Below are positions 13,445-27,971 of a stretch of DNA of 64,000 nucleotides, piece by piece. The stretch lies in contig OZ234493.1 in assembly GCA_965153455.1 (NCBI GenBank), positions 36,694,213-36,758,212 on the forward strand, written 5' to 3'. Both the position numbers and the translations under genes were made by a program. This stretch comes from Sphagnum compactum. Taxonomy: Eukaryota. Under the pieces are notes generated by a model, which saw only the letters and a program-made list of their open reading frames with translations, was not told the origin of the DNA and ran no database searches. How positions within the stretch are numbered: the first letter of the stretch is position 1; the number at the start of each line of letters is the position of its first letter.

Positions 13445-14820
13445 ATGACAAGTGGAAGACATTATTCATTTTGCGTCAGAAGGTTCAAGGAGATGGTGAG
13501 AGCCCCAAAAGAGAAGCAAAAAAGTCGAAGGCGAAGGTTTGGATTCCAAGACTTTCCAATTTTTAGAGATTCTGGTCCTTATTCGGTGGTGAAGGATGTG
13601 GGATCACAAAAGGCAAACATCACCGTTAGACAGTTGGTGGCAATGGTGTCGTTAGCAAGAAAGGAATTAAGGAAGGGGTTATCAACACCTACAGTCCCAA
13701 AGGTACGCACACCTTTGAATGCCATAGTAGTTGAACATGAATGTGATCCAATCATTGATGTGCAATGTAATGGATCAGTGTTGTGCGGAGTGTTGGTGGA
13801 CGGAGGGGTAAGAGTCAATGTGATGATAATTTCTGCAATGAAGTGCTTAGGGCTGAGAATTGATAGACTAGCCTTAGTAACCTTAAAAATGGCTAACAAA
13901 CGAGTTGTTAGACTAGAAGGAATAATTAATAGTGTTGTAGTCATTGTAATGAAGGTTTCCACCATTGTGGATTTCCATGTGGTATTAGAGGAAGATGAAG
14001 CTTACCCAATGATATTAGGTAAGCGTTGGTTAACAAAGTCACATGCAAGGAACCATTGGGGTGAAGGATACATGACCATTGGAATTCATCTTAGCCGACA
14101 GAAAGTTCCATTTACCAACTTTTGTGAAGAGCTCCGGAGGAACGAGTGAGTATGATGATGAATTAGAAACAAACCACAGCTCTAGCTTTGAAGGGATTTA
14201 CACAGATAATTCCAGTGAAGAAGAAGTAGGGTTATATGCTTTGGAAGTAATCCTCAATGTTTGAGCTTTGTTTGAGGCGGATCAAAAGGTTCGAGGGGAT
14301 GATGACCAATCAACTCCACGTGTGTTGACAAAGGAGAAATTGTGGAATGAATGAGTAAGATTCAATTAGGACCCAACTTTCGCCCTTAGGAAAGAAAGCA
14401 ATATGGAAATTTACTGCGTAAATATATCCATTTGTTTGCTTTTAGTTACAAGGACTTTAGGGAAATCACTATGGAACAACACAAAATTGAATTGTTACCA
14501 AATGCCAAACTGATCAGGACTAAGCAAGGGAGGTGGAATCCAAAGTACATTGCAATGGTGAAGGAGGAATTTGATAAATTGTTGAAGGCAGGGTTCATTA
14601 GACCTGTGGAGACAATCGAATGGGTTTCTCTTATGGTATTGCCATTAAAGAAAAACGGCAAGTTAAAGGTATGTGTTAATTACAAAGCTTTAAACAAAGT
14701 AATTAAGAAAGACCGATACCCTTTGCCATTTTGTGAAGAAATTGTGGAAGAAGTAGCAAGGTACGAGATGTACACATTCGGAGATGGGTACAGGGGCTAC
14801 CACCAAATGAAAATTCTTTT
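13445..14820 (+). pseudogene. Ty3/Gypsy pol relic: aspartic protease and N-terminal half of reverse transcriptase
   Basis: Protease-like VLVDGG..VNVM..ILGK.WL in ORF 13445-14149. RT motifs HKIEL, VKEE.DKLLKAGFIRP, KKNGKLKVCVNYKALNK, DRYPLP and GYHQ in ORF 14432-14851. Truncated before YxDD. Confidence 0.9.
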
Positions 14821-16019
14821 GGCCTCATGTGCTCTTACACTCCACACTTAGTCACAAACCTGATGTTAGGGTTGTGACACCAGATTTTATGTACATAAAT
14901 GTTTGTGATTGGGGTGAAGCCATGTGTTTGCAAGAGATGACACCATCATTGTATGGGTTTGCCAAGGAGCAAGATGCCACCAATGCAAGGAAAGTGTGTT
15001 GGTGGGTGGCCCTAAAATTAGGTTTTGTTTATAGTGAATCAAGAATTGAAATTCCCTTCAACAAATGACCAAGTAACACCAAACAACTTTGAGGTTTAAA
15101 GCATATTTGGTGGGCAAGCTAGCAAATGTCATATAAAGTGAAGATTACAATGCAAAAGATTTTGTGGACAATTCAATGAAGATGTCATTTGCGAAAATGA
15201 TCCATGACATGCATGAGCCAAATCCAGAGCCACAAAGAATTGTTCAACACATCGTGCACACATTGATGAAGCCTCCATACAATTGGACTGCACTTGACAA
15301 ATGTTATCGAAGGTAGCCATAGATAGTTTGTAGTTATCAAATGCAACCATAAATAGTTTGTAGTTGCTATAGATGAAATTTGGTGTAATTTGCATCATCT
15401 TTCAAAAATGACATGTTTTGGACTTGTGGATTTTATAAAACCTAATTTTGTCAAGGAATCATGTTGTCATGTGCAATCATATTTGAGATTTGTGAATCTA
15501 TTTTCTTTACACATTTGAAATTTGTGAATCTATGTTTTATAATGATGATATCTTTCTTGTAAACATAAGATACAATTATCACTTATAATCTTACACAAGT
15601 ATTATCCATTTGTCATCTATATTTTTCGATTATGGGTGATTGGACCTTCCATTGATAATGTCCTTCAATAAATGTTCTTATACAATTAATAAAAATCAAA
15701 TAATGAAAAAGAATCAATGGAAACCCATTTGAAGCAATATTTCTTAATGCAAATACAAGCCATTCATTTTTTTGACTTATTTTTTGGTTTCCATTTTTAT
15801 TTTCAATTGTGGGGATTTATATTGTACCCAAACTACATTATACATTTTTTTTGTTGAAATTTTTTTTGAAAGTAAAAAAGGTATTTTAACTCTCTAATAT
15901 TTTTGGAACAAAAATGAATTTGAAACAACCAAAAACCATTGGACGAAAACACTCAAACAATCCTTGTTTTCCATTGCCAAAAGGGTCATTGTCTAATGAT
16001 CAATCATATTGGCAGCCAA

Positions 16020-18899: not shown

Positions 18900-20000
18900 C
18901 ACTGGGATAAACCTAAGCTCTAACGCTAAAATTGGGATATTTCTTCCCGAGTGCTCCCATACATGTCCATCAAAAATGTTGTAAGATACATTCTCCCTTC
19001 TTCATTAGTTTGTTGAGAGTCCACACTATGAAGGATATGTCTTACAAACTGATATGGACCCTCCCAGGACGATTCCAAACCCTTCTTTCTAAGCTTCAGA
19101 ATCTTCACCCGTGTCTCTTGGGGCAGCAGGCTAGCAAACAGTTGTTTCTTTTTCCTTACTGCATATAATTTCTTTTGTCTCTTCTGTGCCTCAAACCACT
19201 TTTTTTTTCAGAATTGAAGCATGCATATGTTCCATGACCATTTGTTGCATTATCTAGGTTGCAAATTGGTCACCTCCCTCTTCATGCTCCAACACCTTGG
19301 TCATCTTTTATATCGAATTATATATCTTCGAGGCAGCCCATTTTTCCCATCAAAATCATGTATGTTGAAAATTTTATGCTGGATTGAATGCTGCATTGGT
19401 ATCCAACAAAACTTTGGGCAATGGATGGTTCTAGTTTCACTTATTTTGGGGCTGTGGCCATGGTTCCCAATCTGTGCTACAAGGTTTGAATTATATGCTT
19501 TACCATTGCATTGCAGATGGGTAGGAGTTGTGTGTTGGTGTTCAATCCCATATGCCTGACAAAAATAAACAAAACTTCGGGCAATGCATGGTTCTAGTTT
19601 CACTCATATTTATGGCTGTGGCCATGGTTACCAATCTGTGCTTCAAGGTTTGAATTATATGCTTTACCATTGTATTGCAGATGGGTAGGAGTTGTGTGTT
19701 GGTGTTCCCATATGCCTGACAAAAATCTATGAATTCCCCTTCCTGTTTGCTTCCATTGTTGGTGGCATAATGTAGCGCCCCAAACCTACATATGCTCACT
19801 CTTGAAAATTTTTGCACCAGATAAAGCTCCATGGTCCCAAATTGCTTTAGCTTGAACCCATTTAGAGGTGCAGTCCAAGGCCACTAACCTATATTTTTTT
19901 GCCACTCTTAATCTCTGGTAGAGGATATGCTGAAGGGCACTAACCCACATACTTTTTGCCACTCTTAATCTCTGGTAGAGGACCTGCTGCATCCAACACA
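18900..20000 (-). pseudogene. LTR-retrotransposon integrase relic with internal duplications
   Basis: KYRLVALDCTSKWVQAKA, TNNGSKQEGEF.DFCQAYGIEHQHTTP...QCNG, and the C-terminal SWEGPY (GPY/F) motif. Duplicated ~160-bp and ~60-bp blocks. Confidence 0.8.
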
Positions 20001-20838
20001 ACCCTAAAGAAAAATCGGCAAACTAGTATGCTGTGTAATTTTTCTTCTACCCATTTCTATTCTCTGCCTTCTCCATCATCTGCAGTTCCCTGCATGCCCT
20101 AACCACCTTTTCACAGTGTTGAATCTATTGTCCCAATTTTATTAGCATTAATTATTCAACAATTCAATGGCAAATATTCAAAATTTTCTACCTTTCGATG
20201 AATGATGTACATGCAAAATATTTCATAAATAATTAGCAGCTTAAAAGTTTTAAAACAGTGATGAGAAGATTCATTTTTAGGTCACTTCGTTGTTGAAAAC
20301 CACTCTGTACTACAAACTTCTATGTGTGAACAGAGTTTTTAAGGTACGTAACTGTCAATAAGCAATTTTATAAGAACAAACTGAAATTAGTTTTGAAATG
20401 AGCATTAAAAAAATCATGTGAAAAAGATCATACTGCAGTACAATTAATTGGCAAAGGTTGCCAGCTCTCATATTAATGTACACATTAATTTGGTGTATGT
20501 AATTTTCTGACTTACACAAAATAGGGAACATTGTTTAGTGTACACATGGTGCAAAATCCAACAAATGGATTTTACACCCTAGTGTGAAATTTGTATGGGG
20601 CAACTCTAAAAATTCAATAGTTGCAAAGTCTAACGATGAATGTCATCATTGGAGTCATGCTACCCACTGCTGTTGTTGCAGCGCATGAAATTACTAAACC
20701 GCTAGAGGGTAAGTAAATTCACTAAAAAAACTCCATCCCAATATAACCACCCTGTTCAAGGACGACAAATTAAGGTCCAGTTGATCATCAATTCTGGTTG
20801 AGAAAGGAGGATGCGCACATCACTATGATGTGCACTGG

Positions 20839-23800
20839 CTAAATAGGATGCATTACAACATGCGTCATATGGTACACGTCCACACTCCTCACAGTAACAG
20901 GAGTTGTGCCATTGTTGAAGAGATAGAGGTTTGCAAGGTTGTCAACTGCCACTCTTGGATATACCCTTGAAGTGATTGCCATCCGCCCACCTTGCACAAA
21001 GCTTTCCACTATTGAACGGTCAACCTGGAGGGAAATGAAGAACAGGTCCTGTTAGCAGCCATGGAAAAGAGAAGAGAGCAAGAGTATTTAAAATTCAAAG
21101 GAATCTTGCAATACTGAAATACACCCGAAAGAATTTTTTTTCAGAAGGTAGATATTCTCATCATGGCTGCAAGCATTTGTTTACTTCTGAGAGAGGGAAT
21201 TGAGGGAGGGGTGAGAAGCTCACAAGTACACGGACTGACAGAAAATCCTCTGTGGGCAGAACTATCACATGACTGCCATAGACTGTGGTGTCAATGCCTT
21301 GTAGCAAGGATGATCTGCACAATACAAATTGCAACCAATCAGGTTTCCTTCCTTTCTCTCCATATTCTGTATATTTCCTGCAGGATTGCAGTATGTTTCA
21401 TTGTCATAGACTTCAAGAAGAACAGGAGATTGTGGCCATAAAAGATGAAGTGAGTATTTTCTTTGGAACTGAAATATTACCTGCTCTGGTCACTGCAAAA
21501 TCTTGTGGTCCATTGACCGTCATTTGTATGCGCAAGATAGAAAAAGAGAGCGGTTTGTTCCTGGAAATCATTGTCTGTTAAGACAAGCAAACCAAAAGGT
21601 CCCAGGACACCACGATGTGCAGATCCACCTTGACTGCAATCGAAATTGTCATCGAAGCTGGCTTCCTCTACAACACCCACAGCTGATATATTTGGGTACT
21701 CAAAAACTACCTCGACATCCAACTGCACATCAACCCATTCAATCAACAAAACAATGAGTGTCAGACTCTTGAAAACTTGAAGATTTTGATGGATGTTTTA
21801 AAAAGTTACTTATAATAAGCCTCTTTGAATTCCTGAAGAAAAATCATTTTACTGCAAAAGAAAATACTGAGATGAGATGTAAGAGAAAGTCCTTTCAATT
21901 CTGGGATTTTTTGTCCTCTCACCTGACCACCTGCAGCACTTTCCACTTCCACAACAGCACCTGCATCAAGCTGCAAATCTGTCATTGACAGCTTTGCCCC
22001 CCTCAGTGCATCTACTTCCTCAATTGGCCACTGTATGAGGCTAACATCCGTCTTACTGTCTAGGGTAACAGTCCTTGGAATTCCCTGCAGAAATTGCAAA
22101 CACAGAAGAATTGGTGAGAAACAAAATCCTCAAGACTCAGTGAGAAAGAAAATCCTCAAAACTTATCAGTGAGAAAACTCTCAAGAAGCAGTGAGAAATG
22201 CTCAAGAATCAGTAAGAGATGCTAAAAATTTCCTGAAGAACCAGTGAAAAATCCTCAAGACTATCAGTGACAAAACAATAAAAATCAGTGAGAAATGATC
22301 AAAATTCCTCAAGAATATATCGGTGAGAAGTGCTAATACACCCTCAAAAATCAGTGAGAGATGCTAAAAGATCCTCAAGAATCCGTGAGGAATGATGCTA
22401 AGGAATAACATCGAGATACTACACAATTTCTTCAAGTCCATAACAGACAGTTGGGAGGGGAGGCCAATCCTTACCAGAACGGAGGACCATCCCTTGGCGA
22501 TGTCCATGGCTTCAGTGTCCGATTCGTTCACCCAGGCCCAGACAACATGTCTGTTCTTGACGGGATCATAGAGCGACTTGGAGGCGTAGTACTTGCCGTA
22601 GTCGTAGCGGAATCCAGACCCGACATCGCGCTTGGGATCATCGGGAATAAACTTCTGAGCAACTTCATCATATGTGCCAATCGTATAGTAGTCGTGCTTG
22701 TCGGCGACCATGCTTGTTTTGAAGACGTATTTCTGAGTGCCCGACGAGACCGTAGAAGGCGTGTCGTAATCTACGGGGAAGAAATCCACGCACTCCCACA
22801 TCCCCGATTCAGGCAACGTGTGCAACAGAGTGTCTTGCAACTCCCATTTAATCAGATCTTTGCTCTTGTACTGCAACGCCCTGCCACTACTCCCTACAAC
22901 TGCACCCACTGTGAACACCCAGCTGCCATCTTTCAGTCGCCACGCAGTTGTTGGATCCCTCATGTCCTGCTCGCCCACATCTTTAGGATGTTTCACTATC
23001 GGATTCTGCTTCACTTTGACCCACTTCCTGAGAAGAGGATCCTCGGGGTCAGCCGGCACTGCCATGTTTTGCGTCTGCTCGTTCCAGTGACCAGTCTCAT
23101 TGGAACCCCCTGTCACACAACAACTAAATATATTCAGTCTCAAAATCTCTCCCCTCTCACGCAAACACAATTTTTGCTGGTAAGATCACTGTAGTAGTTG
23201 ACATCTCGCAAGGATCTCGTGGGATTTGCGTGTGTGATACAACAGAATTTGCTACGATTGCAAAGAACTCAAGCAGAGAAGAAAAGCCCCCCAGGTGGTG
23301 GGCTCAAACAGAGTTGTGCAGGAATCTATGACCAATCCATAGAATATTTTCTTGAAGGAAAACGAAGGGTGGGTGTCCACTGTCATAGAGAAACATGTTG
23401 CTACTACTGCATATGCCGCTCCTCCAGAGTCCTTACCTGTGTAGAGAATGAAGGGGACGTCATCCGGGCCGATAGTAGCTGAGCCTGACCATACTCCCAT
23501 GTCGTCATACCACTGATCAGGCTCCAAAGCATTTTCCAAGTAGAGCCAGTGAATCAGATCTGTGGAGACAGCATGACCCCAAGCGATGTGGCCCCACACT
23601 GCTGCATCAGGATTGTACTGGTAGAACAAATGGTAGTATCCCTTGTAGTACATGGGAGCTGCAAACAGAAAAAAACACACAAGCTCGGTTACTTCACTCG
23701 AGAAAATTCCTCAAAACAGCTGTTCGCTGGTGCTGCAACGATACTTTTATGCTCGAACAAGGTTCTTCCACTGATGGGTCTCTTCTAGATTTTGAAGGAA

Positions 23801-24485
23801 GAATTGCAACTGAATCTCTGAAAATTCAAAACAAAGAAACCCAAGAAAATTCTTCCAGAGGAATATGGGTGCTTACCATTCGGATCTACAGATCAAGCCA
23901 TCAGAAGTCCAACCGCGCCACACATGCCACAGCAAACAAGAACCCATTTCATCAGTTTTTTCAATCCAGAGAGAAACTCGCTACAAATCGTTTCCAGTTG
24001 ATCAAGCACATGTATGGCATCATCGTCTCTCTCTCTCTCTCTCTCCCCAGACTCAAGGTGCGGAAAACACAGGGGATCCCAAGGTCATGGGAAGGGGGGA
24101 CCAATTCTTTTGGCTTACCGTTCATCCAATTCTTGGCAGGCTGGTAGTGGTACGAAGTCCTGTGCGGCTGCTGCAGAGCCTCCTCACCCCGGAGATTCAC
24201 AGAGCTGAGAGGGGAATTGAAGGAAAACGTCCCAGGCACTGCGCCCTTCGTCACCAGCGCCTCAATGCGCGGGTACAGACTCACTGCCCCGTACAACGCC
24301 GCTAGGAAACAACAGATTGTTATGAAAACCGTCGACGCAATTCGCAACGCTCTTCTCTCCCGATTTGTTACTGCTGCTTCTGGCGATTCCGCTAATCCCA
24401 CGTAATAATCACCACTCCCTCCGGCAACTCTATCCAAAAGGCCGCTCTCAAGATCAGCAATCTGTGTCTTCTCCTCGGATCCCAT
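20839..24485 (-). CDS. GH32 acid beta-fructofuranosidase family protein (vacuolar invertase-like / possible fructan-active enzyme), 8 exons, 637 aa
   Basis: Exons 24485-24119, 23885-23877, 23658-23437, 23109-22475, 22084-21923, 21722-21481, 21314-21224 and 21024-20839. All introns are GT-AG with consistent phases; total 1914 nt with no internal stop. Motifs: HYQP, WMNDPNA, WGHAVS, WSGS, RDP, WECVD, YASKS, and a C-terminal VDRSIVESF beta-sandwich. Confidence 0.96.
22110..22395. repeat. Degenerate ~20-25-bp minisatellite in intron 4 of the GH32 gene
   Basis: About a dozen variants of aaatcctcaaga.tcagtgaga. Confidence 0.75.
23877..23885 (-). other. 9-nt micro-exon (ATCCGAATG) completing NDPN of the GH32 catalytic motif
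   Basis: tgtag|ATCCGAATG|gtaagc on the minus strand. It joins exon 1 (..AAC G) and exon 3 (CT CCC ATG) to give W-M-N-D-P-N-A-P-M. Confidence 0.93.
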
Positions 24486-24749
24486 CTTCTCCGCACTCAA
24501 CAACAGCTTCGAGTTCGCAACTCCCAATCTCGAGGGGAAAAAAACAGAATAAAAAATCTGCTCTCTGAACCCAACAAGTCTCTCTCCCCAATCCTGAAAC
24601 AGCAGAATCAATCCAGCGCTCAACCAGAAGACACACCAAATTGAACGACCAAAGCCCGCGCAAAATTTCCCCCCACAAAAATCCCAAAATAGAACCAAAA
24701 CACAACAGAACTCCCTGTCCTCTCTCCTCTCCTCAGCGAACACAGTCAC

Positions 24750-27480: not shown

Positions 27481-27971
27481 CCGACATTAAATTAACCGTG
27501 GGTCTTAAATGCCAGCAGTACAAAAGTACTGCTGCATTCGTTTTTTCACTGTCTGCCCTTAGCCCAATTCAAATTTTCCCAAACATATATGGGTGATGCC
27601 CAAACACATTTGGGCCCATGATTGCGCACAGATGTAATACTTCTGTGTGTCCATAATACACCCAGAATGTGCATAACTCAGGGGCCAATTTTTTTCTAGG
27701 CAGCAACAATATGTGTGCGGGCTTCATCAGACACATTCTTACTCAGGCAACTTGATGATGCCCAAACACATTTGGTCCCATGATTATGCACATATGTAAT
27801 ACTTCTTTGTGTCCATTACAAGCCCAGAATGTGCATAATTCAGGGACCGAAATTTTTCTGGGCAGCAACAATATGTGTCCGGGCTTCATTAGACATATTT
27901 TAATTGGGCAACTGGGCAGGCATGAGAAAATAAATGCATGCATTTAAGACCCACAGCTGATTTAATGTCGA
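27481..27971. mobile_element. MITE-like element with ~30-bp TIR and internal ~162-bp duplication
   Basis: cgacattaaattaaccgtgggtcttaaatgc versus gcatttaagacccacagctgatttaatgtcg. tgatgcccaaacacatttgg occurs at 27594 and 27756. TSD unclear. Confidence 0.65.

Follow-up and report, generated by a model that had tools for sequence, protein, structure and literature searches.

A gene on the minus strand of Sphagnum compactum contig OZ234493.1, lying in a stretch of 64,000 nucleotides (the window, whose positions are used throughout), encodes an enzyme of glycoside hydrolase family 32 (GH32) in which the aspartate associated with sucrose preference is replaced by valine, and this raises the question whether its product is an invertase or an enzyme of fructan metabolism. 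Plant enzymes of the S type (invertases, 1-SST) carry the motif K-X-S-h-D-X-X-(R/K) in hypervariable loop 1, while those of the F type (fructan exohydrolases or FEHs, 1-FFT and 6G-FFT) are without a functional D/(R/K) couple; the couple stabilises the glucose of the sucrose donor, and the rule has been confirmed by the conversion of a cell-wall invertase into a 1-FEH and of a 6G-FFT into a 1-SST (PMC9366321). From the loop and related motifs we regard the gene and the clade to which it belongs as credible candidates for the fructan enzymes of Sphagnum.

The loop at the sucrose-binding position

The loop is encoded in the fourth of eight exons, downstream of a catalytic motif, as follows.

22685..22720, minus strand: hypervariable loop 1, codons AAA ACA AGC ATG GTC GCC GAC AAG CAC GAC TAC TAT, residues K330 T S M V334 A335 D336 K337 H D Y Y341
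22708-22706, minus strand: codon GTC of the valine
22705-22703, minus strand: codon GCC of the alanine
22798-22784, minus strand: WECVD, upstream of the loop
22795-22793, minus strand: codon of the acid/base Glu305, within WECVD, exon 4

An earlier note on this DNA had given these loop letters, the two codons and their coordinates, and all are correct on the minus strand exactly as it had them. Its further claim, that both aspartates of the invertase loop are replaced, is borne out by a phmmer search of the 211-residue exon against all PDB chains, in which the loop aligns without gaps to that of AtcwINV1 (2ac1, 'kislddtkhdyy'). Valine falls on Asp239, alanine on Asp240, aspartate on Thr241 and lysine on Lys242; Val334 occupies the place of Asp239, and Lys337 that of Lys242, where the lysine is kept. 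Because the loop length is identical and the flanks are conserved, a shift of Asp336 onto position 239 is argued against. The loop of the moss protein amounts to a natural D239V/D240A/T241D variant of that of AtcwINV1 (2AC1; D239A mutant 2QQU), with the same length and conserved flanks, although the Arabidopsis enzyme is an invertase of the apoplast, of S type and with W-G-W. The best match in both sequence and fold, the Pachysandra terminalis 6-SST/6-SFT (3UGF), is likewise of vacuolar type and carries WECVD, but it retains the Asp at 239 ('kasideqqrdyy'), takes sucrose as donor and is a transferase.

The geometry of the loop was further studied by modelling the complete orthologue P0223, which differs from the window protein by 12 substitutions, with AlphaFold2 on a 61-sequence alignment. 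Residues V-A-D-K (333-336) form a four-residue turn between strands 325-332 and 337-346, in a block of pLDDT 95. According to the model, Val and Lys would stand at turn positions i and i+3, the place of the Asp/Lys couple in invertases, with Asp336 at the tip.

Compared with the published motifs, the loop K-T-S-M-V-A-D-K departs from the S type in having Val for the required Asp, with the Lys present, and by its sequence it is of the F type, the functional couple being absent from hypervariable loop 1. In the available portion of PMC4524927, whose Table 2 is confined to angiosperms, the loop fails the patterns of Cwinv, Vinv, 1-SST, 6-SFT, 6G-FFT and 1-FFT, matching neither the 6G-FFT signature K---N-D-E-W-H-D-Y-Y nor the 1-FFT signature K-E-S-x-E, and fits the minimal FEH pattern alone. 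Absence of the Asp239-X-X-Lys242 motif is used likewise as an FEH sign in the accessible text of a paper on maize FEH. Note that neither chance nor a sequencing or assembly mistake accounts for the change. All five full-length orthologues (two annotated proteins from S. jensenii and one each from S. troendelagicum, S. magellanicum and S. compactum) have the same loop, as do three transcript-derived JGI proteins, and metatranscriptome contigs that are about 98% identical over 22474-23019 show no difference within 22685-22720 among the differences listed (77 further ones lie in the stretch).

In characterised plant GH32 enzymes the couple is understood to bind sucrose by its glucose half, at subsite +1; where the couple is absent, sucrose would be a poor donor, and a fructan such as 1-kestotriose, 6-kestotriose or a longer chain would bind with its subterminal fructose at +1. 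With the couple missing, the published S-/F-type rule predicts fructan rather than sucrose as the preferred donor of the moss enzyme. Substitution of Asp239 reportedly turns AtcwINV1 into a 1-FEH, as the title of an article of 2007 by Le Roy et al. has it.

The gene might nevertheless encode an ordinary vacuolar acid invertase, in which sucrose would be held by other residues, for example Lys337, Asp336 at the tip of the turn and the three tryptophans of the hydrophobic zone, and the loss of Asp239 would alter the kinetics only. The protein does keep the catalytic triad, the tryptophans of NWMN, VWG and VWSGSAT, and Lys242, and by the title of PDB entry 2qqu the D239A mutant of AtcwINV1 binds sucrose in the crystal; on the other side stand the published rule and the mutagenesis that underlies it. 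Taking these together with the evidence from the family given below, we hold an ordinary invertase to be somewhat unlikely, though an explanation to be reckoned with.

Loss of the couple among Sphagnum GH32 proteins

Three homology searches yielded ten Sphagnum clusters at 90% identity that form a clade with the window protein; the numbers of paralogues given here are those of protein clusters and not of genes in this genome.

Clusters of the clade: P0001, P0003, P0005, P0006, P0008 with P0007, P0009, P0010, P0011, P0039, P0171

Across the ten clusters position 239 reads V, I, I, N, F, F, Y, L, F and I, and in none is it Asp. Among 254 plant GH32 proteins of at least 350 residues from homology searches, the Asp/(Lys,Arg) couple was present in none of the 16 members of the Sphagnum clade (orthologues counted) as against 207 of the 238 other proteins, the remaining 31 being without it. 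The loop columns were taken out before a careful maximum-likelihood tree was calculated from 55 hand-picked rows, a choice that excluded most angiosperm vacuolar invertases and also long fused proteins, partial sequences and near-duplicates. All moss GH32 proteins found fall into one clade (100/98) of four well-supported groups: the Sphagnum clade described here (100/99), one from Physcomitrium and Ceratodon in which residue 239 is Tyr or Phe (100/100), a group from other mosses with the canonical S-L-D-D (100/99), and a second Sphagnum group (100/100). The two groups without the couple pair weakly, with a support of 83 in a quick tree that included the loop columns and of 79/43 in the careful tree that left them out, and one ancient loss or two separate losses in mosses are both possible on these sequences. 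A single, Sphagnum-only origin of the two Sphagnum groups was also tried and gave a log-likelihood (lnL) lower by 11.5 with p-AU 0.0235, a marginal rejection of a grouping chosen after the tree had been seen.

The earlier note had proposed a fructan-metabolising candidate of independent origin. What stands of this is the loss of the Asp239 homologue and the assignment to the F type by the rule; the change is not specific to this gene, however, but marks the whole Sphagnum clade and the Physcomitrium/Ceratodon subclade as well.

The second Sphagnum group (P0142-P0145, P0155) keeps the couple in the loop K-V-S-L-D-D-E-R-H-D-W-Y, P0155 being the member with Q at 239 (S-L-Q-D-D-R); in the tree, S-L-D-D-E-R is retained in two of its three rows. 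These proteins read N-W-I-S-D-P-C-G for NWMNDPNG and W-G-F for W-G-W. With their Asp/Arg couple and W-I-S-D-P-C-G they would be the sucrose-using partner of the clade without the couple, either as invertase or as an enzyme of SST/SFT type.

Outside the mosses, three of the four GH32 proteins of the liverwort Calypogeia fissa are also without the couple (P0147, P0151 and P0231, with D..A, Q..E and F..W), and two have W-S-W. Liverworts are listed among fructan-containing plants in the accessible text of PMC4771763, and a parallel case may exist there.

Three further departures from the usual GH32 motifs had been pointed out, namely NDPNA, WGH for WGN and WAW for WGW. All of them are real, and two have these positions:

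22532..22540, minus strand: W390-A391-W392 (TGG GCC TGG), where most plant GH32 proteins have W-G-W
23596-23588, minus strand: WGH, exon 3

Of the three, WAW is informative and matches a proven FEH, whereas NDPNA and WGH are without weight. Alanine in W-x-W is found in 15 of the 16 clade members but in only 7 of the 238 other proteins, all seven of which are without the couple; in a set of 249 rows it occurs in 0 of 203 with the couple and in 22 of 46 without. Chicory 1-FEH IIa (PDB 1ST8/2AEZ) has the GH32 fold in common with the moss protein, lacks the loop couple ('kagf--eghdwy') and reads 'rrvlwawvpetd' at W-A-W, where the paralogues P0005, P0009 and P0010 read ...WAWVPESC. The two proteins are 40-41% identical over the fold alignment; the similarity in these two motifs is convergent, and the pairing of W-A-W with loss of the couple is suggestive of convergence. 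That W-A-W is shared with a proven FEH also speaks against the ordinary-invertase explanation. A search of the literature for a role of the W-G-W glycine found no paper that names WGW together with invertase and fructan.

NDPNA was considered as a mark of transferases and rejected, as liverwort and fern proteins whose loops are canonical also have it, and NDPNG/A is the normal motif in the available part of the maize FEH paper. The box of Agave 1-SST is DPNA and that of Agave 6G-FFT-1 is DPCG, so that for both Sphagnum groups the box gives a hint of transferases, yet it is not diagnostic. WGH was likewise discarded, since the third position varies freely among N, D, G, R, L, K and H.

Among flowering plants, the GH32 proteins P0061 (Apium), P0104, P0121, P0123 and P0139 carry no functional annotation and have either W-A-W or M-A-W alongside a broken couple; by these motifs they may be unrecognised FEHs. 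P0061 came up among the vacuolar-type matches, which is of note in view of a published statement that no eudicot vacuolar invertase has lost the couple. According to that statement, made in a commentary of 2022 by Van den Ende, the step from vacuolar invertase to FEH is known only in monocots, and the eudicot vacuolar invertases, hundreds of them, retain the couple without exception (PMC9366321), a regularity that also argues against the moss gene being an ordinary vacuolar invertase.

Two of the closest known parallels come from monocots. Onion Ac1-FEH, reported as the first FEH to derive from a vacuolar invertase (Oku et al. 2022, via PMC9366321), resembles the moss protein in its vacuolar-invertase-type lineage, the replacement of the Asp of the loop couple, the intact triad and the vacuolar destination, and its putative paralogues Acp1-FEH1a/b keep a long N-terminal propeptide as the moss protein does. 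Compared thus by description, Ac1-FEH differs from it in being a monocot enzyme with Asp replaced by Ser, most of the propeptide lost and its activity proven, whereas the moss protein has Val for Asp, keeps the Lys and is a predicted enzyme only. In the tree the moss clade is separate from the seed-plant vacuolar invertases, and on this evidence the losses in onion and moss are independent. AtqVinv-1 of Agave tequilana is a second protein of vacuolar-invertase type with a broken couple, called surprising in the extracts available from PMC3340406 and a likely VI-based (vacuolar-invertase-based) 1-FEH in PMC9366321; unlike the moss protein it comes from a monocot and has Ser/Asn in place of Asp/Arg, and its activity is as putative as that of the moss protein.

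Gene structure, expression and protein type

To model the gene, the closest database protein was aligned to the window by tblastn and the exon junctions were inspected. It comprises eight exons on the minus strand, all introns being GT-AG, with 1914 coding bases for 637 amino acids in an unbroken frame.

24119..24485, minus strand: exon 1, ATG at 24485-24483, encoding the N-terminal propeptide with its anchor up to ...NWMN and the first base of the Asp123 codon; donor GTAAGC; placed by tblastn of the orthologue P0001 and by RNA depth
23877..23885, minus strand: exon 2, the 9-nt mini-exon ATCCGAATG, giving D-P-N of NDPNA including the nucleophile Asp123; flanks ...tgtag / gtaagc...
23437..23658, minus strand: exon 3, APMYYKG...WGH...WSGSAT...ILYT; acceptor TTGCAG, donor GTAAGG; PF00251, E 5.6e-32
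22475..23109, minus strand: exon 4, with RDP (22960-22952), WECVD, hypervariable loop 1 and WAW; PF00251, E 4.8e-45
21923..22084, minus strand: exon 5, RNA joints 22083->22474 and 21722->21923
21481..21722, minus strand: exon 6, joint 21314->21481 in 15 X22 reads and in contigs
21224..21314, minus strand: exon 7, joint 21022->21222 (cut +2) in 17 X22 reads and in contigs
20839..21024, minus strand: exon 8, the end of the C-terminal beta-sandwich, with stop TAG at 20841-20839; PF08244, E 5.4e-12
24276..24350, minus strand: hydrophobic segment, the transmembrane anchor of the propeptide, residues ~46-70; Kyte-Doolittle 19-residue maximum of 2.15 at residue 52

A mini-exon of nine nucleotides is typical of plant acid invertase genes. 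With it the beta-fructosidase box becomes NWMNDPNAPMYY, as in the transcript-derived P0221 and the annotated P0223. In the RNA run X1 the mini-exon letters ATTCGGAT are located between 23659 and 24119, and the joint 23658->23877 is present in all four RNA runs. Our model agrees with the annotated S. compactum protein P0224 without a single substitution, the three mini-exon residues being the sole difference; the annotations P0001, P0217, P0218 and P0224 all miss the mini-exon and read NWMNAPMYY. More widely, the DPN mini-exon is missing from public annotations of many Sphagnum GH32 proteins (P0001, P0003, P0009, P0010, P0039, P0217, P0218 and P0224), while the annotation of P0144 runs through intron sequence in its place. 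On paper such proteins are without the catalytic nucleophile, and automatic screens would therefore wrongly call them inactive.

Expression was studied by aligning four RNA runs, the metatranscriptomes X1-X3 and the stranded poly-A run X22, to 20700-24700. Six of the seven introns are found directly as canonical joints, 21022/21222, 21314/21481, 21722/21923, 22083/22474, 23108/23436 and 23658/23877, with 17, 15, 15, 1, 4 and 6 X22 reads, respectively. Five of them are carried by contigs from all three metatranscriptomes, and 21722/21923 is seen only in X1 and X22. Intron 1 is supported by way of the mini-exon, whose letters stand between exons 1 and 3 in X1, and by 16 X22 reads with a spliced ...NWMNDPN of a slightly different allele. 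First mates of X22 lie on the plus strand, as expected for minus-strand RNA. Among 22 exonic differences listed between RNA and window (with 77 further differences beyond the list), 14 are synonymous and 8 nonsynonymous, while 22.5% of sites are synonymous, an excess that indicates purifying selection. The gene is intact and transcribed.

Two non-canonical joints were also seen. The joint 23912->24119 (10 X22 reads and X1-X3 contigs) would make a second exon of 36 nt with an in-frame stop, and 22428->22985 (4 X22 reads and X2/X3 contigs, with one extra letter) would drop most of exon 4 including the loop; both could be artefacts, paralogue chimeras or minor isoforms.

In the protein, both GH32 domains were matched, the N-terminal five-bladed propeller (PF00251, exons 3 and 4) and the C-terminal beta-sandwich (PF08244, exon 8). 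All three catalytic motifs, which the earlier note had called intact, were found in the spliced model, and the triad is complete: Asp123 in NDPNA (122-126), Asp251 in RDP (250-252) and Glu305 in WECVD (304-308), which would serve as nucleophile, transition-state stabiliser and acid/base, respectively. The best PDB sequence matches of exon 4 in the phmmer search were 3ugf (4.7e-57), 2ac1 (2.1e-53) and 1st8 (3.9e-48). The model of P0223 (pLDDT 86.1, pTM 0.81) has a disordered stretch at 1-40, a helix at 42-79, again disorder at 80-104 and, after residue 104, propeller and sandwich; Foldseek matched it to 3ugf (TM 0.94), AtcwINV1 (0.91) and chicory 1-FEH IIa (0.91-0.92).

These data bear on a further explanation, that of a catalytically feeble, defective invertase serving as a regulator or binding protein. 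The defective invertases of tobacco and Arabidopsis are themselves without the Asp239 homologue, which counts in its favour, but they have also lost the Trp of VWG, which is kept here. The three catalytic residues with their surrounding motifs are intact, purifying selection is strong (14 synonymous against 8 nonsynonymous differences), and the confident model of P0223 matches active enzymes. A defective invertase thus appears quite improbable, the least probable of the explanations considered.

The assignment to the vacuolar type, as the earlier note had it, was upheld in one respect and needs qualification in another. WECVD has the Val of vacuolar types, while the cell-wall-type proteins P0111, P0100, P0149 and P0154 read WECPD, and the N-terminal extension of 111 residues contains a membrane segment whose hydrophobic maximum of 2.15 is comparable to that of vacuolar invertases from Amborella and Nicotiana. 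Together with an isoelectric point of 4.84, this propeptide with its membrane helix fits a vacuolar enzyme. On the other hand, PF11837, the N-terminal domain that seed-plant vacuolar invertases carry, is absent from exon 1 and from the precomputed Pfam matches of Sphagnum proteins, and the moss proteins fall outside the clade of fern and seed-plant vacuolar invertases and in their own (100/98, in a tree rooted at midpoint only). Note that the paralogues vary in targeting. An internal membrane helix is found in the window protein, P0006, P0008, P0039 and P0171, and P0003 begins with a hydrophobic stretch resembling a signal peptide. In P0005, P0009, P0010 and P0011 nothing hydrophobic precedes the catalytic domain (maximum 0.6-0.8), which would be odd for acid GH32 enzymes unless the annotated N-termini are wrong.

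As to the surroundings, tblastn detected no second GH32 gene in the window, and neighbouring long open reading frames such as 13445-14851 had no Pfam family match. Intron 4 contains three short degenerate tandem arrays with periods of 21-31 (22114-22394), intron 1 a GA microsatellite at 24017-24055 where reads were cut, and two-copy tandem repeats of 160 nt flank the gene at a distance (19405-19726 and 27594-27913).

Substrate and role in Sphagnum

In the literature, as far as it was accessible, Sphagnum is described as the sole fructan-storing moss, with fructans and sucrose as its main soluble carbohydrates. That the genus stores fructan strengthens the idea of a fructan enzyme, and since all moss GH32 proteins found lie in one clade, the fructan enzymes of Sphagnum must lie within that clade. 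An F-type GH32 that would act in the vacuole on the plant's own fructans, be it an exohydrolase or a fructan:fructan transferase, is the explanation that the evidence favours most, and we consider the case for it evenly poised. Taken separately, a fructan exohydrolase that trims or mobilises fructans is a tentative assignment and the likelier of the two, and a fructan:fructan fructosyltransferase an unlikely one.

Several points weigh against a role on fructan. In the loop itself Lys242 is kept, and an Asp is present two residues past position 239. The rule derives from angiosperm enzymes and has exceptions: the loop alone misplaced 5 of 106 characterised sequences according to the accessible text of PMC4524927, and excerpts of PMC3340406 have the Pachysandra 6-SST/6-SFT using sucrose despite Gln at position 242. 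Ala in W-x-W showed no significant association with the missing couple on 11 phylogenetically independent pairs, of which 2-5 changed the same way and 0 the opposite way (median p 0.25). At 24166 the RNA runs have one codon more (GCT, the third Gln in the orthologues), and their reads are for the most part 95-99% identical, so that the RNA documents expression of orthologues in related Sphagnum and not strictly of this allele; the depth of X22 over exon 4 is low (0.7-7). The literature searched, with subscription journals outside its coverage and some sources available in part, shows no characterised bryophyte GH32 or fructan enzyme. The couple is missing, moreover, in the Physcomitrium/Ceratodon subclade, from mosses without reported fructan storage and possibly the sister group (79/43), and the loss is therefore an old one that, taken alone, is no marker of fructan storage. 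Finally, invertase activity of the acid, cell-wall type is reported from Sphagnum species, S. compactum among them, and at least one family member must accordingly cleave sucrose.

The last two of these points also favour an ordinary invertase. As for the reported activity, the second Sphagnum group with its Asp/Arg couple could supply it, and either that group or P0003 is a candidate source by sequence.

The subclade from mosses not known to store fructan also suits a different proposal, namely recruitment of the enzyme to another beta-fructoside, such as a modified sucrose, a raffinose-family sugar or microbial levan. There is precedent for this in a GH32 enzyme of wild-tomato trichomes that cleaves acylsucroses, as far as the available part of PMC6482016 tells, and in the 6-FEHs of non-fructan plants, which perhaps act on bacterial levan (PMC9366321). 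A hydrophobic residue at 239, as the Val, Ile, Phe and Tyr of the clade, would suit a less polar group at +1. The vacuolar-type propeptide, however, makes it less likely that this paralogue works on microbial levan in the apoplast, and the tenfold expansion in a fructan-storing genus is better explained by fructan. We know of no such substrate in Sphagnum, and regard this recruitment as improbable.

If fructan is indeed the substrate, the two Sphagnum groups could be parts of a complete fructan pathway built from moss vacuolar-type GH32 proteins independently of flowering plants, a somewhat unlikely possibility. The couple-keeping group P0142-P0145 and P0155 would supply the sucrose-using fructosyltransferase, and the ten-cluster clade with W-A-W and without the couple would supply fructan:fructan transferases and exohydrolases in vacuolar (this gene), secreted (P0003) and signal-less forms. 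In that case this gene would belong with the first fructan enzymes to be recognised from non-vascular plants, and would represent a second and far older case of a vacuolar invertase turned FEH.

Flowering plants provide known examples both of this type of enzyme and of the route by which it arises; the novelty lies in the lineage, its age and the expansion in the one moss genus described as storing fructan. Sphagnum is the peat-building genus and accounts for a large share of soil carbon, and the gene and its clade offer concrete, testable candidates for fructan enzymes in bryophytes. Should the enzyme turn out to be a good invertase instead, the widely used loop rule for GH32 would fail to transfer to bryophytes. 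If the prediction is true, the loss of the couple and the exchange of Gly for Ala in W-G-W would have been reached independently in mosses and flowering plants, a clean case of convergent enzyme evolution, and the route from vacuolar invertase to FEH, as of 2022 confined to monocots, would extend to the base of the land plants.

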